Virus record (IMG/VR): IMGVR_UViG_3300028299_000003
Coordinates: 1 to 64,000 of that record
Strand: one strand, 5' to 3'
DNA from: a virus
DNA: 64,000 nucleotides
The notes beneath the pieces are model-generated. The model did not search any database and was not told the DNA's origin. It saw only the letters and a program-made list of their open reading frames with translations. The position numbers were made by a program, and so were the translations under genes. Below are positions 11,883 through 21,224 of the stretch, in pieces. Within the stretch, counting starts at the first letter, position 1. Each line of letters begins with the position of its first letter.

Positions 11883-12358
11883 ACTTTCATTATCTAATTA
11901 TTATATAATTAACATAAAAAATTTTAGAATATGAAAAACACTATGAAAATATATTATGATGACGATCCATATTCAATTATTAGTAAAGTAAACGATTTAA
12001 TAAGTTCTTGTGGGATAGAGATTATTGAAGGTGATAGTGATGATGGTTGGGTAGAGTATGAAGTCATAATACATGACCAAAAAGGTGAAGAGATTTGTGA
12101 ATGAAAAATTGTATTTTAATACCTACATTTTGAAACTGGGATTGATTATTCAATTCTTTTTATATTTACCATAGTTGTAATATCATACATTTGTTCACCA
12201 ATTTTCAATTTTTTCACCATGGAATTAAATGTACTAGAAAATTTTGGCAATCCTTCTTTTTCAACTGTTTCTTTTTCACCTTTTTTATTAGTTATTTCGT
12301 ATTTCATAAGATATTTTTATTTTATATATAATATCAAATCGGGTCAATTTTAAAATAA

Positions 12359-12402
12359 GAAAAGGAATGGATTTAATGGTCTAACCAAATCCATTCCTTT
12401 TC
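12359..12402. terminator. Intrinsic terminator closing the tRNA-Glu-like array
   Basis: gaaaaggaatggattt...aaatccattccttttc long inverted repeat just 3' of the last tRNA-like gene. Confidence 0.7.
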
Positions 12403-12406
12403 AATG

Positions 12407-12475
12407 TAGCCCTTGTGTGAATCGAACACCACTTATCGGGAACCCCCGAAGTCCTATCCAATAGACGAAAGGGCC
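12407..12475 (-). ncRNA. tRNA-Glu-derived RNA with 4-nt anticodon loop and bulged T-stem
   Basis: GGCCCTT TC GTCT..GGAC T TCGGG-GGTT-CCCGA TAA GT(G)GTG-TTCGATT-CACAC AAGGGCT A. Confidence 0.75.
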
Positions 12476-12493
12476 ATAATTCTGAGAATTGAT

Positions 12494-12592
12494 TCGTCAT
12501 TATGGGATTTAAACCCATATTCCCTTTCGGGAATCCCTCTAAAGAGGGATTACTCTGCTTCGCAGGAGTCCTGTCTTTTGGACGAAATGACA
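12494..12592 (-). ncRNA. tRNA-Glu-derived RNA with tiny anticodon hairpin and two extra arms
   Basis: TGTCATT/AATGACG acceptor; GTCC/GGAC D-stem; CTGC-GAA-GCAG; ATCCCTC-TTTA-GAGGGAT; TCCC-GAAA-GGGA; ATGGG-TTTAAAT-CCCAT T-arm. Confidence 0.65.
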
Positions 12593-12637
12593 GAACCTTT
12601 TCTCATTTTTTAAAATCTTAATAAAAGATAAAAATAG

Positions 12638-12726
12638 TAGTCCTAGAGGGATTCGAACCCCCGTTACCAAGAAAACCTTGGCGTCCTTATCCACTTTAAA
12701 GTGGAGTTCCGTTAGACGATAGGACC
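12638..12726 (-). ncRNA. tRNA-Glu-derived RNA with 5-nt anticodon loop and a hairpin in the D-loop
   Basis: GGTCCTA/TAGGACT acceptor; D-loop insert TCCAC-TTTAAA-GTGGA; CCAAG-GTTTT-CTTGG; normal TTCGAAT T-loop. Confidence 0.78.
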
Positions 12727-12732
12727 GTTTTG

Positions 12733-12819
12733 TAGCCCCTGTGGGACTCGAACCTCACATTCCTAGGACAATACCTAGGGTCCTGCACATCGGACGATGA
12801 TCCGTTAGACGAAAGGGCC
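12733..12819 (-). ncRNA. tRNA-Glu-derived RNA with 6-nt anticodon loop, D-loop hairpin and bulged T-stem
   Basis: GGCCCTT/AGGGGCT acceptor; D-loop insert CATCG-TC-CGATG; CTAGG-TATTGT-CCTAG; GTG(A)GG-TTCGAGT-CCCAC. Confidence 0.75.
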
Positions 12820-12864
12820 ATTTTATTTTCGACTTATTTTTTTCAGTATCTCAAAGAACAAAAA

Positions 12865-12895
12865 CAAAGGTACATTGTTTTTTTGACAAAACAAA
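12865..12895 (-). promoter_or_regulatory. Bacteroidota sigmaA-type promoter followed by a boxA-like site
   Basis: TTTG-N19-TACCTTTG; GTTCTTTGA at 12851-12859. Confidence 0.65.
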
Positions 12896-12919
12896 ATTTT
12901 TCTTTGTTTTTTTTTTATG

Positions 12920-12994
12920 TCACCCGTAGGGGATTCGAACCCCTGATTTCAAGGATGAAAACCTTGCGTCCTAGACCGACTAGACGAACGGGCG
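12920..12994 (-). tRNA. tRNA-Glu(UUC)
   Basis: Canonical cloverleaf, CAAGG-TT TTC AT-CCTTG. Confidence 0.95.
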
Positions 12995-13001
12995 TATTTT
13001 G

Positions 13002-13156
13002 TAGTCCTAGGGGGATTCGAGCCCCCATGACCAAGAAAACCTTGGCGTCCTTATCACACAATCTGGATTTGAACCATAATTCCTCTATTCTATTATATAA
13101 GAGGGTGTTTCCTTTTGTTACACTATTTGTGTGAGTTCCGTTTAGACGATAGGACC
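13002..13156 (-). ncRNA. tRNA-Glu-derived RNA with a second cloverleaf (13054-13134) nested in its D-loop
   Basis: Outer part nearly identical to 12638-12726; inner part TCACACAA/TTGTGTGA, GTGT/ACAC, CCTCT/AGAGG, TGG-TTCAAAT-CCA. Confidence 0.75.
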
Positions 13157-13222
13157 TGAAATCATATATAAGATGATTTCGTATTTTTAATATTTTCAAA
13201 TTTTCAATGAACGATTACAATA

Positions 13223-13254
13223 CAAAGATAAGAATTATTCTGATACTATACAAA
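13223..13254 (-). promoter_or_regulatory. Bacteroidota sigmaA-type promoter for the tRNA-Glu-like array
   Basis: TTTG-N20-TATCTTTG, followed by boxA variant GTTCATTGAAAA. Confidence 0.7.
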
Positions 13255-13279
13255 TTTTTCTTGGATAAAATAAAAAAAA

Positions 13280-14185
13280 TGGAATGAGACTACTTCCACT
13301 TCTGACTGATACCTTCATTGTATTATCCCTTTGACTCCCATCAGAGGGTTCTCAATTTGTCCACATCCACCAGGGATGTCTATCAGCGACGCTGCCGTTT
13401 TATAGTTGGTGACTCAACTTTTACCATCAATCATATTCAACTTTCCGAATACCCTCTGCTTTCGGGGCAGTTCGTGGCCGCTAGACCACTAGGTGCATCT
13501 TTCAATCAAATTCATCCGTCTTGGGAACTTCAGAACTCTCGGTTCACCCGTAGGTGCTAAGAATTAAGCGACTTTCAGATTGATGTTGAGTGGGCCTTTC
13601 CATTTGATAACAAAATGCAGGAATTGAACCTACGTTTTTTATTTAAGCGATAAATGCCTTACCACTAGGCAAATTTTGTTAGTCCACCAAGAAGTGCCCA
13701 CTCAGCTGTTCTATATCCTTTTGAGATATAAAATTCAACACTTCTCATGCGTTTCGGGCTACCGACCCTACTGTGCGGTTCTTCAAGAATCCTGACCCCT
13801 CGTTCTACCAAGGAATCATTCACCTCTGGAACTATTAGATAGCCATCACGTTGGTCTGCTTTGACAGTCTAATCACTCCTTATCCAATCAGATGTATCAA
13901 TCGGCTGACGAATGGCGTTGGGTGTCACCCCATATTAGAGAAGCTCCTTACCCATTGCCGTGACAATGGGGGCTTACCTCTCGTATTCTTCCCACAGAAC
14001 CATAACCGATTTTCCACCTTAGTTCCACCGAAGTGAAACCCGCCACTGGGATGCGTTAGGATGAAGTTTGCTTGGATGAACTACCCGAAAGTAGCAGGAG
14101 ATTGTGAACATTTACTCCTCTTTTACACCTTACGATGTATTATCCTTTATCCCCCGAAGGGGAAAACTTCCCAAACAAAGTTAAT
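13280..14185 (-). ncRNA. Large structured ncRNA, probably GOLLD-like (ends approximate)
   Basis: ~900 nt, markedly GC-richer than the flanks, no credible ORF; several UUCG/GNRA-capped hairpins on the - strand; own promoter; lies between tRNA genes; 3' end GTGGAT..ATAATAC..AAGG..GTAGTCTCA recalls GOLLD (from memory, not searched). Confidence 0.65.
13609..13680 (-). other. tRNA-like domain (CUU loop, G at position 33) embedded in the large ncRNA
   Basis: ACAAAAT TT GCCT-AGTGGTA-AGGC A TTTAT-CGCTTAA-ATAAA AAAC GTAGG-TTCAATT-CCTGC ATTTTGT; enclosed by the TGAGTGGGC/GCCCACTCA helix. Confidence 0.7.
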
Positions 14186-14233
14186 TTTTTTACAATAAAT
14201 ATAAGAACATTTTTTAATTTCAAATTCGTTTTA

Positions 14234-14264
14234 CAAAGATACGAAGATTTTTTATATCGGCAAA
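14234..14264 (-). promoter_or_regulatory. Bacteroidota sigmaA-type promoter for the large ncRNA
   Basis: TTTG-N19-TATCTTTG. Confidence 0.72.
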
Positions 14265-14567
14265 ATTTATTTTTGTTTATTTTTCCCCTAGATCAATTTT
14301 ATAGTTATTATCAGGTGGTCCCGTTACAATAGTAACCTTGAACATTCTACCATCAACATTTCTTTTAATCATAAGATAAACCTTTTCTATATCAATATCA
14401 TTTTTTCTACCACCAAAGAAAAACAACTACATCTTTAGTGTAGTTTGATGAATTTAATATGATTTAATAAATCTAATCCGTTCATTTTTTCAAAATTTTA
14501 GAATTTAATTTCTAACTGATCATTTTCCTCATCTTCATTTATCTCCGAATTATCAAAATCAATTTTG

Positions 14568-14655
14568 TGCTCCAGATAGGATTCGAACCTATAAGCCTCA
14601 TTATGGCGGTGATTCCTGAGACCACTGTGTTTACCTTGGTTTTCACCACTGGAGC
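14568..14655 (-). tRNA. tRNA-Leu(CAG)
   Basis: GTGGT-CT CAG GA-ATCAC, long variable arm, A73. Confidence 0.9.
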
Positions 14656-14662
14656 TAATTTT

Positions 14663-14875
14663 TTATTTCTTTCTTTCCCTTCTTTCTTTCTTTTCAATTT
14701 TTTCAACTTTCTCAACCTTCTCCTTATTTGATTCGGATTGTTTTCTCCATTCCTTCCAATCTTTTTTATTTGAGTAAATCCAATCAAAACCCAAAAGTCT
14801 TTTGATTTCTTTATAATCATCAATAGATTTATCACTTACTCTTTTAAATTCATCGTTTCTTTTTAGTGTTTTCAT
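14663..14875 (-). CDS. Small charged hypothetical protein
   Basis: ORF between the CHAD gene and tRNA-Leu. Confidence 0.5.
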   Translation of the reverse strand: MKTLKRNDEFKRVSDKSIDDYKEIKRLLGFDWIYSNKKDWKEWRKQSESNKEKVEKVEKIEKKERRERKK

Positions 14876-14881
14876 ATTTTT

Positions 14882-15307
14882 TTAATGTTTAATTATTTTT
14901 GAAAAATTATAATATATATTATCCTCTAGAAATTTTTTTAATTTCTTATCAATATCTTTTTCTAGTTTATTTCTTTTCTTATCTAGTTTTTTAGATTCAG
15001 ACTTGTTCATAGTCTTTTTTATAATATCCATATCTCTAATTTCACCCGTTTCATCTTGTATTTCTTTTAATTTATTATAAAATTCATAGTATTTATTCTT
15101 TTGAAAAAATACAAAAAATACTTCCATTGAGTATCTTAATCTTCTTACCGATATTCGAATTTCATGTAGTGTATCTTCATTAGGATTTTTTAAATAATCT
15201 TCTATATTATTTTTTATAGTCTTTAATCTAAATTTTAAAGATTTTTTAGAAAATTCATTAGAGTTTTTTTCATTGTCAATTATCCATTTTTTTAATTTAT
15301 TCATCAA
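14882..15307 (-). CDS. CHAD-domain (polyphosphate-binding) protein
   Basis: LHEIRISVRRLRYSME and LKEIQDETGEIRD motifs. Confidence 0.8.
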   Translation of the reverse strand: MMNKLKKWIIDNEKNSNEFSKKSLKFRLKTIKNNIEDYLKNPNEDTLHEIRISVRRLRYSMEVFFVFFQKNKYYEFYNKLKEIQDETGEIRDMDIIKKTMNKSESKKLDKKRNKLEKDIDKKLKKFLEDNIYYNFSKIIKH

Positions 15308-15442
15308 TCCATTAGTTTAATTATATCGTTACTTTTCTTAAAAATCATATGTATCCCAAATATTCTTATTACAAATCCCTTCATATGTTTGAATTTTCTA
15401 AAATAGAAAAACCAAAATCTACTTTTGTAAAATTTTATGTAT

Positions 15443-15751
15443 TTAGTGTGTACTATCATATTTTTCTAAACATTCCATTTTGAACCAAGGCCATTTACCC
15501 CTTAACATTACCATATACCCATCATATAGAATTTTTGTTTTGCGGTGACCATCCATTGTTATTTTATAGGAATGTTCTATTTTTTCAATTTTTCCTGGAT
15601 TATTATTTGTAGCTGTATATTTTGACCATTTTCCACAAGAACTATCCCACCAAGAATATTCTTCATTTATCACAACTCTATCACCAATATCAAAAGGAAG
15701 TTCATCATATTCCTCCCATTCAAAATCATCAAAATTAATATTTTCAATCAT
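15443..15751 (-). CDS. Hypothetical protein (SH3-like)
   Basis: FDDFEWEE motif followed by FDIGDRVVI. Confidence 0.6.
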   Translation of the reverse strand: MIENINFDDFEWEEYDELPFDIGDRVVINEEYSWWDSSCGKWSKYTATNNNPGKIEKIEHSYKITMDGHRKTKILYDGYMVMLRGKWPWFKMECLEKYDSTH

Positions 15752-15791
15752 TTTTAAATATAATTGATAATTTAATAAATAAGAAATTTTA

Positions 15792-16007
15792 TTACCACCT
15801 TACTACTTTATAATTGTGACCCTTACTATTAACCATCTTACCTTCTGATTCTAGAATTTTAGTTATACTTTTTATAATAGAATTACTTAGTTCAGCGGTT
15901 TCCCAGTAATAATGAAATTCACCTTTTTTCGCGGATTTCAAAATTTCTCTTTTTAATACTTTCAGTATCTCAGCTTCCTGTCTTACTCTTTCTTCTACTA
16001 CAGTCAT
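15792..16007 (-). CDS. Hypothetical protein
   Basis: ORF in the minus-strand run. Confidence 0.55.
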   Translation of the reverse strand: MTVVEERVRQEAEILKVLKREILKSAKKGEFHYYWETAELSNSIIKSITKILESEGKMVNSKGHNYKVVRW

Positions 16008-16084
16008 GGCTTTTTAATTTTTTATAAATTAATATAATTGGTTCAAAATACAATTTAATAGATTTAACTATTTCCTTTTTCATT

Positions 16085-16393
16085 CTAATTTTCATTTTCT
16101 TTTTTTCCTTTCTTACATATAGGACATACTACAACTTGTTGTAAGGTTATGGAATCTATATCTACAATAATATAACCTTTATTATTACAATTTGCACATC
16201 TAAATTTGTTATATTTACACATAACAATATTCATTTCTTCTTTATAACTAGGAATGTGTCTATTATCACATGCTCTGTCACCAATCATACCAAATCCAAA
16301 ACATTTTTTAACATCATTTTTAGATAGAGTACACACTCTACAAATTCCATTAATTCGTTCTTCTTGGGTATGAGGTTTCATTTCATTCATCAA
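16085..16393 (-). CDS. Cys-rich hypothetical protein
   Basis: CANCNNKG...CPIC. Confidence 0.55.
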   Translation of the reverse strand: MMNEMKPHTQEERINGICRVCTLSKNDVKKCFGFGMIGDRACDNRHIPSYKEEMNIVMCKYNKFRCANCNNKGYIIVDIDSITLQQVVVCPICKKGKKENEN

Positions 16394-17156
16394 TATATTT
16401 TTTTAACTTTTCAAATTCATTTTCAACAAATTCATTATTCTCTCTACCCATATCCTTTATTACATATGGAATATATCCACAGTTTTTAATTTCTTTTATT
16501 TTAATTCTATCTCTATTTTTCACTTGTTTAATTGAATGTTTTTCTTTTATTTTTTCATAATGCCATTTTCCATTCCACAATATCGCTATTTTATAATCTT
16601 CTATTATTATATCAGCGTCCCATCCATTAAAAATTGATTCATTAGTTTTAATATTATTAAAATATTCTTTACATAATTCAGAAAAATATATTTCATTTTT
16701 ACTTCTTCTATTCTGATTTAGAACTGAGGCTCTACCACCCTTTATTGCTTTATCTATATTATTTTTATTTGAATATGTTATAGAACACTTGTTAGAACAA
16801 AAAATTCTATTTTCAGTTATTCTATGCTCAAATATTTTATTACAATATTTACAAATTGTACTTATTCTTTTAATATGATTTCTACCAATCAATGACTCAC
16901 TTTTCTTTTTCTTATCATCATCATCCCAATCTCTACTATTGGCACAACTTCTAGAACAATAATATTTTTCTTTTTTAGGAAAAAGTTTTTCTCTTTCCTC
17001 TATTTCAAATTCCTTTTTACAATTATTACAAGTAACTATAAATTTTTTGAATTCACCATACTTTTTATTAACATATCCACCTTGGTGTATATTTTGACAA
17101 GAAGTATTACAATATTTATTTTTTACAGGTTTTCCACAATTTAAACATTTATTCAT
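16383..17156 (-). CDS. Putative homing endonuclease (Zn-ribbon repeats plus Vsr/PD-(D/E)xK-like domain)
   Basis: CxxC...YCSxxC repeats; SKNE, ADIII..KIAILWNGKWHY...RDRIK. Confidence 0.7.
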   Translation of the reverse strand: MNKCLNCGKPVKNKYCNTSCQNIHQGGYVNKKYGEFKKFIVTCNNCKKEFEIEEREKLFPKKEKYYCSRSCANSRDWDDDDKKKKSESLIGRNHIKRISTICKYCNKIFEHRITENRIFCSNKCSITYSNKNNIDKAIKGGRASVLNQNRRSKNEIYFSELCKEYFNNIKTNESIFNGWDADIIIEDYKIAILWNGKWHYEKIKEKHSIKQVKNRDRIKIKEIKNCGYIPYVIKDMGRENNEFVENEFEKLKKYIDE

Positions 17157-17226
17157 TTTATAATAGTTTTTATTTCTATATATAAAATTATAAAAACGGA
17201 AAGTTGTATTGAACCTTTTTATATTG

Positions 17227-17296
17227 TGCGGATGTCAGATTCGAACTGATTCTCAAGATTATGAGTCTCGTATGTTAACCATTACACCACACCGCG
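17227..17296 (-). tRNA. tRNA-Met(CAU) with imperfect acceptor/T stems
   Basis: CGAGA-CT CAT AA-TCTTG; TTCGAAT T-loop; Met versus Ile2 identity uncertain. Confidence 0.75.
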
Positions 17297-17391
17297 TGTT
17301 TTTTACATTAGAATTTTATTAATTTCTAATGGTATAAATTTAATTGAAAATTAATTAGTTTCCAAAATTTAATTGTTCTTTTTTACATGTG

Positions 17392-17690
17392 CGGCCCGTG
17401 TAGGATTCGAACCTACGACCAACAGATTACACATTATCCATAATTTTCATTACGGGGTGGACTATATCATCATCTCTACTGAGATGTCGGACGCTATTAA
17501 AGGTTTATTGATTGATTTTCTCACCTTTTAGTCTCTGCACCTTCCCAAATACTCTTATAATCTTCTCTGGGCTTGGATCAGGATTGCCATATTAAAGGTT
17601 TCCCTGAGTTCATCCGATTTTCCATATGTGGTCACCCACATACGCTGCAATCTTTACAGTCTGCTGCTCTACCAGCTGAGCTAACGAGCC
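17392..17690 (-). tRNA. tRNA-Asn(GUU), intron-containing
   Basis: Exons 17690-17656 and 17429-17392 join to GCAGA-CT GTT AA-TCTGT; G73. Confidence 0.9.
17430..17655 (-). ncRNA. Group I intron (226 nt, no ORF) between anticodon positions 35 and 36
   Basis: P1 CUGU^AA/UUGCAG with U.G at the splice site; core AATCCTGA, GCAGAGACTA and GATATAGTCC; terminal G. Confidence 0.9.
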
Positions 17691-17710
17691 ATTATTTCAA
17701 AGAACAATTG

Positions 17711-17783
17711 TGACCTTGGCGAGAATCGAACTCACATCTAAAATTCCGCAAATTTTTATTCTAATCCGTTGAACTACAAGGCC
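17711..17783 (-). tRNA. tRNA-Arg(GCG)
   Basis: AAAAT-TT GCG GA-ATTTT. Confidence 0.88.
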
Positions 17784-17793
17784 CTGTTTATTG

Positions 17794-17866
17794 TATCCAC
17801 TCTAGGACTCGAACCCAGACCTAATTATTCGAAGTAACTAATGCTAATCCGTTACACCAAGTGGAC
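17794..17866 (-). tRNA. tRNA-Arg(UCG)
   Basis: AGTTA-CT TCG AA-TAATT. Confidence 0.9.
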
Positions 17867-17870
17867 ATTG

Positions 17871-17945
17871 CGGTGACGACCAGATTTGAACTGGCGATCT
17901 CCTGAGTGACAGTCAGGAATGTTAGGCCATCTACACCACGTCACC
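17871..17945 (-). tRNA. tRNA-Asp(GUC)
   Basis: CCTGA-CT GTC AC-TCAGG; G73. Confidence 0.93.
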
Positions 17946-18400
17946 TTATTTTAACCATTTTCTTATTGCGTTATCACTTACACCATATTTTCTTCCTGTT
18001 CCTTTATATCCAAGTTCTTCAATATCTTTTAATAGTGTTTCTTTATCAGGTCTTTCTACTTTTCTTTGTTTTAAATCTGCACATTTTTTACATCTTTTTG
18101 ATTGTCTATCTTTTTTGTTGCCACATTTACAATAATAATTTCCATTATAGAATCCATAATTATTTTTTATATTTTTTGCACCATGTGTGTCTAAAGTTAC
18201 ATTACAATTTGGACAAACAATTCTTAAATTTTCTAATCTATTATCATCATTTATACCATTAATATGATCCAATACAAATATTAATTTTTTCCCCATCCAT
18301 TCTTCATCTTGACCACAAATTTCACATTTTTTTTCTTTCAATCCTTCATAGAATTCTTAACAATATTAGTAAAATGATTTTCTTCATATCTATTTTGCAT
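17946..18400 (-). pseudogene. HNH homing endonuclease, internally deleted or frameshifted
   Basis: LDHINGINDDNRLENLRIVCPNC; the ATG at 18400 (MQNRYEEN...) is out of frame with the HNH part; much shorter than its paralogue at 19043. Confidence 0.65.
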
Positions 18401-18471
18401 ATTCTTTTTTATTTGTATATTAAAATCTGAATACCAAAAACTGTCAATTAAATCAAAGAACGTCTTTTTTG

Positions 18472-18548
18472 TTGGGAAGGTGGGATTTGAACCCACATGT
18501 GACCAGTTACCGTTTCAACACTTTATAAGAGTGAGCGGATACATCCCA
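18472..18548 (-). tRNA. Non-canonical tRNA-Ile(UAU)-like, D-loop 3' of the anticodon arm
   Basis: TGGGATG TAT CCG CT CACT-CT TAT AA-AGTG TTGAAA CGG TAACTGG TCACAT GTGGG-TTCAAAT-CCCAC CTTCCCA A. Confidence 0.72.
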
Positions 18549-18560
18549 GTTTTTATATTG

Positions 18561-18710
18561 TTAGTGTGAGTGGATACGATGAATTGAATTTGTCGGATTG
18601 GGTGGGGTCGAACCACCATGTAACCAATTAACCTTTCAACTGCTTATCAGGCAGAGGGTTTACAATCCGTTTTGTTAGAGAATCACTCTAACCAATTGAG
18701 CTACACACCC
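18561..18710 (-). pseudogene. Disrupted canonical tRNA gene (probably Ile) split by the non-canonical tRNA-Ile(GAU)
   Basis: 5' half GGGTGTG TA GCTC AATTGGTTA GAGT G ATTCT CT (18710-18677) and 3' remnant ATCCACT CACACTA A (~18575-18561). Confidence 0.65.
18593..18669 (-). tRNA. Non-canonical tRNA-Ile(GAU)-like, D-loop 3' of the anticodon arm
   Basis: CGGATTG TA AACC CT CTGC-CT GAT AA-GCAG TTGAAA GGTT AATTGG TTACAT GGTGG-TTCGACC-CCACC CAATCCG A. Confidence 0.75.
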
Positions 18711-18715
18711 GTTTG

Positions 18716-18798
18716 TGACCGAAGTGGGAATCGAACCCACATGAGCTTAGCTCAAAGGTTTTTAAGACCTTCGCGTCTGCCAGTTCCGCCATTCAGCC
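18716..18798 (-). tRNA. tRNA-Leu(UAA)
   Basis: AAGGT-CT TAA AA-ACCTT, long variable arm. Confidence 0.93.
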
Positions 18799-18815
18799 AA
18801 TTTTATTTCAATACG

Positions 18816-18863
18816 TCAAAGAACCATTTTACAAATTTACAAAATTATTTCCACATTTCCAAC
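18816..18863 (-). promoter_or_regulatory. Possible internal promoter plus boxA in the tRNA operon
   Basis: TAAATTTG (18839-18832) with imperfect -33 GTTG, followed by GTTCTTTGA. Confidence 0.45.
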
Positions 18864-18880
18864 TTTTCAACAAATTTTTG

Positions 18881-18957
18881 CGGTCCCAAAGGGATTCGAA
18901 CCCTTCTGTTATTCCTCCGTGACAGGGAGGTAGCCACACCCAGCAACTCCTGAGACC
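18881..18957 (-). tRNA. tRNA-Asp(GUC), atypical D-arm and variable loop
   Basis: CCTCC-CT GTC AC-GGAGG; G8G9, no A14, 8-nt variable region; G73. Confidence 0.82.
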
Positions 18958-18969
18958 AATCAATTTTTG

Positions 18970-19052
18970 TGACCAAGGTGGGACTCGAACCCACAAGTTC
19001 TGTGAACGATAGGTTCTAAACCTATTATGTTTTCCAATTTCATCACTTGGCC
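18970..19052 (-). tRNA. tRNA-Leu(UAG)
   Basis: ATAGG-TT TAG AA-CCTAT, long variable arm. Confidence 0.92.
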
Positions 19053-19717
19053 TTCTCGTAATTTTTTTTCCATTTTCTTATACTATTATCACTCACTCCG
19101 TATTTTCTTCCTGTTCCTCTATATCCAAATTCTTTTATTTCTTTTAATAATTTATCATAAGATGGTCTTTTTACTTTTCTTTGTTTTAATTTTGAACAAT
19201 CCATACAATATTTACTATTTTCTTGTTTTTTATTTCCACACTCACATTTCTGTTGTGGATTTTTATTTATTTTTGATTTTTGATTTAAACTCTTACAATA
19301 TGTATTTGTTTGAGCGTGACAATTTGGACAAAGTATTTGAATATTATTAAATTCATTATTAAATCTATTGCCATCTATATGATGAATTTCTAATGGTGCA
19401 TCTTTATTATTCCATTCGGTAAGATTACAAATTTCACATTTTTTTTCTTTATATCCATCCATTATTAATTTTTTTCTCAGTGTGTTGCTACTTATTAATG
19501 ACCCGTTAAATAAATATTTAGAAACATGTTTTCTATTATTTGATATTTTTTTACCCTTTAATCCCATATTGCCATTATATTCAATATTCATTTTTTTCAA
19601 ATATCCATTTAATGTTGATTGTCTACATATAAGTTCTTTACAAATGAAAGATTTTGGTTGATTATCATTTATCCATTCTAATATCTCTTCTTTTTTTTCT
19701 AATATATCTTTTCTCAT
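19043..19717 (-). CDS. HNH homing endonuclease
   Basis: CEIC...LEIHHIDGNRFNNEFNNIQILCPNCH; C-terminal HTH; likely start MRKDILEK at 19717; stop lies inside tRNA-Leu(UAG). Confidence 0.85.
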   Translation of the reverse strand: MRKDILEKKEEILEWINDNQPKSFICKELICRQSTLNGYLKKMNIEYNGNMGLKGKKISNNRKHVSKYLFNGSLISSNTLRKKLIMDGYKEKKCEICNLTEWNNKDAPLEIHHIDGNRFNNEFNNIQILCPNCHAQTNTYCKSLNQKSKINKNPQQKCECGNKKQENSKYCMDCSKLKQRKVKRPSYDKLLKEIKEFGYRGTGRKYGVSDNSIRKWKKNYEKAK

Positions 19718-19821
19718 CTTTTTTTTTATTTTATATATTAAAAATAAAAAGTCAAAAATGGTAAACACCATAATTATTTTTATAATATGTATATTATTTT
19801 AATTATTTCAAAGAACTTATG

Positions 19822-19898
19822 TACCGATGGCTGGATTCGAACCAGCGACGTGTAGTGATTATGATTCACTTGCGATAGCCAACTCCGCCCACATCGGT
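19822..19898 (-). tRNA. tRNA-Met(CAU) (or Ile2), atypical D-arm
   Basis: AGTGA-AT CAT AA-TCACT; ACCGATG/CATCGGT acceptor. Confidence 0.82.
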
Positions 19899-19905
19899 GT
19901 GTTTG

Positions 19906-19987
19906 TGGTCAAGGTGGGAATCGAACCCACAAGTTTTGAAACAATAGGTTTTGAGTCTATCGCGTTTACCAATTTCGCCACTTGACC
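19906..19987 (-). tRNA. tRNA-Leu(CAA)
   Basis: ATAGA-CT CAA AA-CCTAT, long variable arm. Confidence 0.92.
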
Positions 19988-19990
19988 GTG

Positions 19991-20072
19991 TGACTGAGGA
20001 GGGAATCGAACCCACAAGGATTTCTCCAATAGTTCCTTAAACTATCGCGTCTGCCTGTTTCGCCACTCAGCC
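19991..20072 (-). tRNA. tRNA-Leu(AAG)
   Basis: ATAGT-TT AAG GA-ACTAT, long variable arm. Confidence 0.88.
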
Positions 20073-20081
20073 GAATTTTTG

Positions 20082-20163
20082 TGAGAGGGGTAGGATTCGA
20101 ACCTACAAGTCCCGAAGGAAACGGGGTTACAGCCCGCCGAGCCACCAGCTGCTCAACCCTCCC
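20082..20163 (-). tRNA. tRNA-Tyr(GUA)
   Basis: GCGGG-CT GTA AC-CCCGT, variable arm with UUCG loop. Confidence 0.92.
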
Positions 20164-20179
20164 AATTTATTCCAAGATG

Positions 20180-20188
20180 TCAAAGAAC
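20180..20188 (-). promoter_or_regulatory. boxA-like antitermination site (also at 19808, 18816, 18453, 17697, 12851)
   Basis: GTTCTTTGA repeated in tRNA spacers. Confidence 0.65.
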
Positions 20189-20193
20189 TTTAC

Positions 20194-20226
20194 AAAAACA
20201 AAAAACCCAATCTTTTGGATTGGGTT
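20194..20226 (-). terminator. Attenuator terminator upstream of the tRNA operon
   Basis: AACCCAATC-CAAAA-GATTGGGTT followed by TTTTGTTTTT, between the promoter and the first tRNA. Confidence 0.8.
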
Positions 20227-20250
20227 CGGATTACTTCAAGTTATAAAAAC

Positions 20251-20340
20251 TCATCGTAGCAATACAAACCCATCATCCATATCTAGATATAAATCTATAT
20301 TATAGAGATTAATAATGTTCATATTTGAATTTCGTGTCAT
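20251..20340 (-). CDS. Putative attenuator leader peptide MTRNSNMNIINLYNIDLYLDMDDGFVLLR
   Basis: 29 codons plus TGA; A-rich upstream; the 3' part (20274-20258) is complementary to the terminator 5' arm (20235-20218); codons match the downstream tRNAs. Confidence 0.75.
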   Translation of the reverse strand: MTRNSNMNIINLYNIDLYLDMDDGFVLLR

Positions 20341-20416
20341 TGAATTTTTTTTATTTTGTTTTTGTAATGTATATATAGTATTTAAAAAAGTTTATTTTTT
20401 TCCATTTTTAATAATA

Positions 20417-20448
20417 CAAAGATACGGAGATTTTTTTAATATACCAAA
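20417..20448 (-). promoter_or_regulatory. Bacteroidota sigmaA-type promoter of the tRNA operon
   Basis: TTTG-N20-TATCTTTG. Confidence 0.75.
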
Positions 20449-20759
20449 TCTTTTTTGATGATTTTATCAATTTCTTCTTTATTTTCATCATAATTTTCTT
20501 GTTTCAAGGTATGAACTACATCCCCTTCTTTTAGATTATCCAATTCATCACCAGTTGGATTTATGATAGCTATTTGTAATCCATCATTATGAATAATAAC
20601 TCTTTTGAATGGGTGTAATTGAGCTAACTCTCCCTTTAAATCCACAACTATTCCATGGTCCTTTGGTATCATTATTCCCAACGCGGTCGCGAATAATAGA
20701 GCACCCACCAACCAATCTCTACTATTATCTGGATTAGTTTCATTATTTGTATATTCCAT
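20436..20759 (-). CDS. Hypothetical protein
   Basis: ORF with an N-terminal hydrophobic stretch. Confidence 0.55.
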   Translation of the reverse strand: MEYTNNETNPDNSRDWLVGALLFATALGIMIPKDHGIVVDLKGELAQLHPFKRVIIHNDGLQIAIINPTGDELDNLKEGDVVHTLKQENYDENKEEIDKIIKKDLVY

Positions 20760-20828
20760 AATATCTATTATTTTTCAAATATATAAAAAAATTTTGATAA
20801 AGTTTAATTAAGAATGTTTTTCATATTT

Positions 20829-21224
20829 TTATTGAAGATTATCAGATAAATAATCTTTTAATTTATTAAACTCTAGTCTTCCAGAATTTAAAGATAAAAC
20901 ATCCCAACTATCTTGTTTTATCGGAATTAATCTAGAAAAACCTTCTTCATCAACTATACCAAGATCAAATCCTTTTATTAATTGTTCTAATTTATCGGTA
21001 CTTTTACCATCCACATATATCCAGGGATACGGTAATCCATATTCTTTATGACCCCAACATGATTGAGTAGTTATAATTCCATTATAATTTAAAAGGACCA
21101 CCAATTCCCTTATTCCACTATCTATTTTTTTCCCCAACCCATCAGTAATATTTCTAGAATTATATTCCATTCTTTTATATTTTTCATCATCAAAATCTAT
21201 ATCGGAAAATTTTTTTATTTTCAT
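20829..21224 (-). CDS. Hypothetical protein with TYW3-like N-terminal motif
   Basis: IDSGIRELVVLLN..GIITTQSCWGH. Confidence 0.5.
   Translation of the reverse strand: MKIKKFSDIDFDDEKYKRMEYNSRNITDGLGKKIDSGIRELVVLLNYNGIITTQSCWGHKEYGLPYPWIYVDGKSTDKLEQLIKGFDLGIVDEEGFSRLIPIKQDSWDVLSLNSGRLEFNKLKDYLSDNLQ

Follow-up and report, generated by a model that had tools for sequence, protein, structure and literature searches.

The stretch analysed here, which we call the window, is the first 64 kb (positions 1 to 64,000) of a 76.6-kb virus record, IMGVR_UViG_3300028299_000003, with a G+C content of 26.6%. Lake-water metagenomes contain DNA near-identical to this record, and its PHROG matches are consistent with a large tailed phage, among them matches to tail proteins, homing endonucleases, an SbcC-like nuclease and a DNA polymerase. 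Of particular concern here is a block of tRNA genes on the minus strand (20163-17226) that is preceded by a short open reading frame (ORF), an intrinsic terminator and a boxA-like motif. The comparative evidence strongly supports reading this leader region as a ribosome-mediated, leader-peptide transcription attenuator placed ahead of a phage tRNA operon, although that reading is drawn from sequence. All features of the window given below lie on the minus strand.

The leader ORF (20340-20251), found by ORF scan, starts with ATG and has 29 codons plus a stop. Twenty-four of the 29 codons fall in the set Tyr, Leu, Met, Asp, Ile, Arg and Asn, and codons 6-23 (20325-20272) form an unbroken run in which every codon is cognate to a tRNA of the block. 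The fit reaches the level of isoacceptors: the Leu codons CTC, TTA, CTA and TTG stand against anticodons AAG, UAA, UAG and CAA, ATT and ATA against Ile GAU and UAU, and CGA against Arg UCG, with tRNA-Arg(GCG) alone lacking a cognate leader codon. An earlier, sequence-only reading of this DNA had described the ORF, its 24-codon match and the isoacceptor fit with its single exception, and each of these was borne out. The match is moreover an outlier in its own genome. The leader ranks first in in-set codons among the 136 ATG ORFs of 24-36 codons in the record, and just 4 of 36,483 stop-free 29-codon windows reach 24 such codons; the mean in-set fraction is 0.44 for long ORFs and 0.51 for short ones. 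The same reading took Lys and Glu to be the commonest residues, which holds for Lys (first, at 12.2%) and not for Glu (fifth, at 7.0%) in the record's ORFs. The leader has no Shine-Dalgarno sequence, and a Shine-Dalgarno-like 4-mer precedes just 1 of the phage's 63 long ORFs, while an A-rich tract at -10 to -20 is common to the leader and the protein genes. Because this A-rich context without a Shine-Dalgarno sequence is that of 62 of the 63 long ORFs, the leader counts as having a usable translation start.

Just 3' of the leader, where it had been placed before, lies an intrinsic terminator (about 20227-20193) with a 9-bp stem at 20227-20203, a 5-nt loop and a T tract, found by consensus scan and scored at -11.4 kcal/mol. 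The 5' arm of the predicted antiterminator, segment 2 (20271-20258), lies within codons 24-28 and is marked out by the minimum free energy (MFE) fold, the conserved TGGGTTNNTATTGC and covariation. Its 3' arm, segment 3 (20235-20222), overlaps the first 5 nt of the terminator 5' arm and is defined by the MFE fold and duplex scoring. The pairing of the leader's 3' part with the region of the terminator 5' arm, likewise proposed from the sequence, forms in the MFE fold of 20345-20185, which contains the antiterminator and not the terminator (GGGUUUG/CGAACCC plus AUUGCU/AGUAAU; z-score -2.7). The segment-2 motif recurs in the window at 14793-14780, but this copy was rejected, as it lies within a 70-aa ORF without a terminator.

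A boxA-like 9-mer, GTTCTTTGA, follows the terminator at 20188-20180, so that the boxA assigned there earlier is a real motif. Further copies stand within the block at 19816-19808, 18824-18816, 18461-18453 and 17705-17697, and another outside it at 12859-12851; six of the nine copies in the record are on the transcribed strand of tRNA regions, and shuffled sequence gives a mean of 3.2 for the whole record. Upstream of the leader there is a promoter-like motif, AACT-N11-TATATATA, at 20392-20370, which is conserved upstream of homologous leaders; in the form (A/G)ACT-N11-12-TATATA(A/T)A it stands at an equal distance upstream of the leaders of two related phages, G005 and G007, and occurs only three times in the record. 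The promoter formerly placed at 20448-20417 has no such comparative support and is probably wrong, and the site once suspected of being an internal promoter, near 18835, is another of the boxA-like copies. The upstream neighbour of the leader is a 107-aa gene (20759-20436).

Between 20163 and 17226 ARAGORN finds 11 canonical tRNAs, to which Asn(GUU) is added once introns are allowed; of the 14 tRNAs counted earlier, these 12 thus stand, and the remaining two, both Ile, are non-canonical (Rfam scores of 31 and 28.9 bits, the threshold being 29). In order of transcription the block comprises Tyr(GUA) (20163-20081), Leu(AAG) (20072-19990), Leu(CAA) (19987-19905), Met(CAU) (19898-19821), Leu(UAG) (19052-18969), Asp(GUC) (18957-18880), Leu(UAA) (18798-18715), the Ile-like genes with anticodons GAU (18669-18593) and UAU (18548-18472), Asp (17945-17870), Arg(UCG) (17866-17793), Arg(GCG) (17783-17710), Asn(GUU) (17690-17391) and Met(CAU) (17296-17226). 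The anticodon loop of the Asn gene carries a group I intron (RF00028, 96 bits, 17666-17438). Two HNH endonuclease-like ORFs are inserted in the block: one at 19771-19043, recognized by Cys/His motifs and by its likeness to the second copy, with a promoter-like motif of its own (19753-19730), and the other, a relative found by ORF scan, at 18341-17946. Both Ile-like genes lack a D arm in the usual place, and between the anticodon arm and the T arm they have an insert of 22 nt that resembles a D loop. Directly upstream of the first of them (18669-18593) stands a clean tRNA 5' half of canonical form (18711-18672). Since the leader carries both ATT and ATA codons, the arrangement suggests that the two Ile-like genes are working decoders.

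Relatives of this leader were not easily found. Protein and simple DNA searches returned none for the leader system, blastn of the leader against five related records gave weak AT-rich matches only, and a pattern linking the boxA-like motif with the 5' start of tRNA-Tyr had no matches. The route that succeeded went through the motif common to the two Ile-like genes, which is also present in six other viral contigs; these led to G005, and G005 to a scan for TGGGTTNNTATTGC plus a terminator tail. In G005 (locus L015) a Tyr/Leu block opens with a 28-codon ORF (L015:3560-3646), followed by a terminator, GTTCTTTAA and then the tRNAs. The 3' end of this ORF shares TGGGTTNNTATTGC with the window's leader, read in a different frame; as the same nucleotides are kept in two reading frames, TGGGTTNNTATTGC is conserved as RNA. 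The scan of viral and metagenome contigs yielded 12 true homologues, all with tRNAs following, in G005, L019, L022 and nine metagenome contigs, with ORFs of 27-29 codons. Those matches that had no downstream tRNAs each looked like chance, and a scan of genome contigs gave 17 chance matches and no bacterial or prophage homologue.

Among the homologues the RNA motif is constant and the central codon run varies with the tRNAs that each leader precedes. Leaders of the NLYYLYLYLY type stand before Tyr and Leu(AAG, UAA, CAA, UAG, CAG) genes, with the Leu codons CTA, TTG, TTA and CTC all distinct, and leaders of the IIKSIKHISVK type before Lys(UUU), Val(UAC), Ile(GAU), Ser(UGA) and His(GUG), their Ser codons TCA and TCG being those expected for a UGA anticodon. 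Phage G007 has four such units: RIGMDCGRDDR precedes Asp, Arg(UCU), Gly, Cys and Met; PRPERPTEVTT..VVEETA precedes Glu, Arg(ACG, CCU), Pro, Thr, Val and Ala; KHSKHFSSSSKWF precedes His, Phe, Ser, Lys and Trp; and QNIQNMIINQI precedes Ile(GAU, UAU), Asn, Met and Gln(UUG, CUG). In G006 the run WPYSCP..PAYP is found before Tyr, Pro, Trp and Cys and LQRQLQLQLL before Arg, Leu and Gln, and a further unit has tRNAs for Phe, Thr, Asn, Asp, Arg(UCU), Glu, Ser, Gly and Ile(UAU); G001 has one such unit. Between close homologues the central run is invariant down to the specific Leu codons, each of the two indels covers whole codons, and the stop survives a change from TAA to TGA. Synonymous changes outnumber nonsynonymous ones 5:2 between L063 and L091 and 3:1 between two leaders of the Lys/Val/Ile type, while comparisons with L015 do not lean that way (2:7 and 2:5), the numbers being small throughout.

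The sequence-only reading had proposed that homologous leaders be examined for codons co-varying with the downstream anticodons, and the outcome was strongly positive in two sets. The discovery set consisted of 11 distinct leader/tRNA-block units from four phage records, with blocks delimited automatically and the match scored over the whole leader minus its start codon, the codon level being judged by simple wobble decoding. Leaders matched their own blocks at 0.57 (amino acid) and 0.50 (wobble) and other blocks at 0.33 and 0.25, and the observed own-block values were reached in 0 of 200,000 permutations; for 10 of the 11 blocks the best leader of all was its own, and removal of two units that had been picked by eye left the result unchanged. 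The match belongs to the reading frame (0.57 in frame, 0.31 and 0.28 in the other two, with the in-frame value highest in 11/11 units). It also depends on position relative to the antiterminator arm: own match is 0.73 at codons -16 to -13, 0.91 at codons -12 to -5 and 0.66 at codons -4 to -1, and falls to 0.20-0.27 inside or after segment 2, the cross-block control staying at about 0.3 throughout. The codons of peak match are those at which a stalled ribosome would leave the antiterminator arm free.

For the independent set, viral contigs were picked by a terminator tail plus the boxA-like 9-mer, without use of codons, which gave at least 119 loci. Among the matches listed there were 83 sites with a hairpin, 57 of which had a tRNA within 500 nt; all 57 of these had an ORF of 12-60 codons ending at the terminator, and reduction to 42 non-redundant units left an own match of 0.50 against a cross match of 0.37 (z = 9.2; 0/100,000). 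Examples are QQQPQQHPQ before Pro, Pro, His and Gln, and YYfKKsYKKY before Lys, Lys, Val, Tyr and Tyr. The arrangement is therefore widespread in uncultured phages.

The RNA structure is conserved along with the codons. The best duplex between the 3' part of the ORF and the terminator 5' arm is far stronger than in shuffled sequence (z from -2.4 to -5.2) in 9 of the 11 units and in three more homologues of the Tyr/Leu type (G005, L091 and L063), always 38 to 6 nt upstream of where the stop codon ends, with the stop 23-28 nt from the hairpin in most units. For each terminator 5' arm the upstream region of the same unit is the best partner (-11.9 vs -7.6 kcal/mol for those of other units; 0/200,000 permutations). 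In a MAFFT alignment (A2) that takes in 14 units, pairing in the antiterminator stands at 83.7%, with double changes at 7 of 11 pairs and a covariation score of 0.373 against 0.183 for shuffled alignments (0/500) and at most 0.184 for slid controls; for the terminator the figures are 87.9% paired and 0.424 against 0.218. The antiterminator thus covaries with the terminator 5' arm about as well as the terminator does with itself. A boxA-like motif follows the terminator in most homologous units.

Taken as an attenuator, the leader would work as follows. Transcription would start about 20 nt upstream of the 29-codon ORF, and a ribosome following the polymerase would meet, in codons 6-23, the codons read by the downstream tRNAs. 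Scarcity of the aminoacyl-tRNA for any codon of the run would stall it and leave segment 2 bare, to pair with 20235-20222 as that segment emerges from the polymerase; the terminator 5' arm would then be sequestered and the polymerase would pass the boxA-like site into the tRNA genes. With fast decoding, the ribosome would enter the last nine codons and cover segment 2, so that the terminator would form and transcription stop. As the output tRNAs would relieve the stall, the device would govern decoding capacity by negative feedback, each isoacceptor providing one input. The 9-mer GTTCTTTGA resembles the boxA of rRNA operons and is a candidate Nus-factor site; a Nus-type complex loaded after the attenuator could shield the long untranslated transcript from Rho. 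We infer leader translation, stalling, the readthrough response and the natural trigger, which could be either host defence or a plain mismatch of supply.

Folding with a ribosome mask (A site -15 to +14; equilibrium or truncated-transcript folds serving as a proxy for kinetics) agrees with this scheme for the window, the state switching at the predicted codon. The terminator has a probability near 0 with codons 2-19 in the A site and reaches 0.9 or more between codon 20 and the stop. In a transcript ending before the terminator 3' arm, pairing of the 5' arm is 0.7-0.99 with the ribosome at codons 1-18 and drops to about 0 at codons 21-29, and in 9 of 10 units such truncated folds have the 5' arm paired with the ribosome in the run and free with the ribosome in the last nine codons. 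A 1:2 helix between the regulatory run and segment 2 was absent from both the MFE and the centroid structure of the window's leader, and in the truncated transcript without a ribosome the terminator 5' arm is already paired upstream at 0.80. Given the lack of a 1:2 helix, an untranslated leader should default to readthrough, which would make this a three-segment variant of the classical design.

A number of observations weigh against this interpretation. The equilibrium fold favours the terminator at every ribosome position in five of nine units, and the switch must therefore be kinetic; classical attenuators likewise decide kinetically. In some units much of segment 2 escapes the mask when the ribosome is placed right at the stop codon, and one unit (U10, in L103) has no in-frame stop before its terminator. 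The leader concerned, of the Gln/Asn/Ile/Met kind (L103:2804-2968; G007:155803-155967), has its matched run, antiterminator and terminator in place, and the missing stop could be an assembly indel or a real variant. In the window, two of the tRNAs counted, those for Ile, are non-canonical and only putative decoders. A window scan of the minus strand from 20203 to 12402 predicted no further intrinsic terminator, so the controlled transcript could run on past the tRNAs into protein genes (17156-14663) and a Lys/Glu tRNA region, and Lys and Glu, the amino acids of that region, are absent from the leader. One metatranscriptome run yielded a single identical contig (18447-18781) and nothing over the leader, and a search of INPHARED phages with the window's leader and three other leader types gave no relatives.

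With the attenuator itself accepted, its purpose can be considered separately. We somewhat favour the view that large uncultured phages carry a modular tRNA-supply controller, in which each block stands behind a leader listing its own isoacceptors in in-frame codons and only the blocks that are missing are transcribed; the phage would thus gauge, one codon at a time, the decoding that its infected host can still perform. A real attenuator might instead serve counter-defence, firing when a host anticodon nuclease or some other immune system aimed at tRNAs destroys those of the host and switching on nuclease-resistant replacements, a proposal stressed in the sequence-only reading that we regard as possible and rather unlikely. 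Phage tRNAs do rescue infection from tRNA-cleaving defences (PMC10264068, PMC11555353, PMC11464382). The three-segment design, which would default to ON when translation collapses, and the sensing of each isoacceptor separately are also as that proposal would have them. On the other side, sequence cannot separate tRNA cleavage from a shortage of host tRNAs for a genome of 26.6% G+C, and no defence or anti-defence gene was tied to the system here. The usual targets of anticodon nucleases are tRNAs of the Lys/Glu/Gln/Asn/Tyr type, and the units together span nearly every amino acid, well beyond these.

Two further explanations dispense with attenuation by a translating ribosome, and both seem very improbable. 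One would make the ORF a functional micropeptide with its own terminator, the likeness to an attenuator being incidental and tRNA transcription unregulated by the ORF. The conserved length and position of the ORF and the mostly synonymous changes between some close relatives are what a peptide would call for, but the peptide sequence is not kept between units, where only the codon-to-tRNA match persists; the 3' part is conserved as nucleotides in two frames and pairs with the terminator arm, with compensatory changes, and the matched codons end exactly at segment 2. The other, of much the same low probability, is an RNA-only switch in which a protein or an uncharged tRNA binds TGGGTTNNTATTGC in the manner of a T-box, with no need of translation. 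It would account for the conservation of these nucleotides regardless of frame, but the leader has no T-box or other Rfam cis-regulatory match (E up to 1), a Stem I-like structure is not present in its roughly 90 AT-rich nucleotides, and the signal of tRNA identity lies in in-frame codons at ribosome-footprint distance from the element. That the ORF arose by chance in an AT-rich spacer beside the terminator of the 107-aa gene is disfavoured to the point of being scarcely credible: AT-richness does favour Asn, Ile, Tyr and Leu codons, and short ORFs average 0.51 in-set, but this leader is an outlier within its own genome, its homologues' codons track other tRNA sets, the match is frame-specific, and the 107-aa protein had no relatives in viral contigs and none adjoining homologous leaders.

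Some neighbouring features deserve mention. Downstream of the tRNA operon and on the same strand, 13746-13281 matches the GOLLD RNA over the full model length (147.4 bits, gathering score 150, E = 4.5e-40), with a tRNA-Lys(CUU) embedded in it at 13680-13608. An 88-nt tRNA with a long variable arm lies at 14655-14568 (Rfam 47 bits, no ARAGORN call). The region 12994-12638 holds a tRNA-Glu(UUC) and a weaker tRNA-like match (38 bits, 12638-12726), for which ARAGORN has to allow a 66-nt insert; near it, at 12402-12359, is a strong terminator with a 19-bp stem. The ORF at 5944-4739 strongly matches the IS605/IS200-type transposase family phrog_506 (E = 8e-124). Among the relatives, G005, a record rich in tRNAs, matches bacterial RNase P RNA class A weakly and in part at L015:12619-12851 (37.7 bits, E = 9.5e-9, well short of the gathering score of 100). 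ARAGORN also reports tRNAs with CUA, UUA or UCA anticodons in L016, L018, L103, L194 and L229 (from G004, G001, G007 and other viral contigs), and these stop-reading anticodons, of which none was seen in the window, hint at stop-codon recoding in the relatives.

The closest known systems in mechanism are the multivalent leader-peptide attenuators thrL (Thr and Ile) and ilvL (Ile, Leu and Val), along with trpL, hisL, leuL and pheL. Like thrL and ilvL, the phage leaders combine a short ORF in which regulatory codons abound with an intrinsic terminator and an antiterminator, the two being mutually exclusive; the position of the ribosome would here too be the switch, and a single leader would sense several amino acids. 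The phage system differs in that it would regulate tRNAs rather than biosynthetic enzymes, so that its output would directly alter the quantity sensed; in that up to seven amino acids would be sensed, with individual synonymous codons matched to individual isoacceptors; in having three segments rather than four, such that an untranslated leader should read through; and in being borne by a phage. A search of 12000-21000 against the Rfam leader families (Trp, His, Leu, Thr and similar) found no match at E up to 1. In E. coli the pheM leader controls pheST, which encodes phenylalanyl-tRNA synthetase, and it resembles the proposed phage system in that leader-peptide attenuation acts on a part of the translation machinery that serves the very amino acid sensed, but pheM belongs to the host, senses one amino acid and has a protein-coding synthetase as its target. 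T-box riboswitches likewise sense tRNA status and choose between terminator and antiterminator upstream of translation-related genes. They differ in binding uncharged tRNA directly through a specifier codon, without a ribosome, by way of a long structured Stem I, and there is no Rfam T-box match at the leader, which is about 90 nt, coding and AT-rich. The recurrence of GTTCTTTGA-type 9-mers after the leader and along a long untranslated transcript recalls the boxA/Nus antitermination of rRNA operons, with the difference that the 9-mer here comes after a probable attenuator and belongs to a phage tRNA operon. With the phage systems of tRNA supply and counter-defence (PMC10264068, PMC11555353, PMC11464382) the window shares its tRNA cluster and, as the likely pressure, the shortage or destruction of host tRNAs; PMC10264068 does not contain attenuat-, leader, terminator or promoter as words. 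In a collection of 8.4 million papers and preprints we found no description of leader-peptide or attenuator control of tRNA genes, those of phages included.

Phage tRNA genes have so far been explained by codon supply and lately by escape from tRNA-targeting immunity, and the control of their expression is essentially unknown. We have found no earlier description of tRNA genes under feedback control by the speed of decoding, so that the arrangement described here would be the first, and it would extend a textbook mechanism to a new class of regulated gene and to viruses. A modular controller, if that is what these phages possess, would work alike for codon-usage mismatch, host shut-off or tRNA-cleaving immunity, and its modules, compact and with several inputs each, would sense tRNA availability and could find further use as reporters. 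The leaders would also annotate tRNA function, as a natural key to the codons read by each phage tRNA, the odd-shaped ones included. The question of when phages need their tRNAs would thus become testable, through the blocks that are induced.

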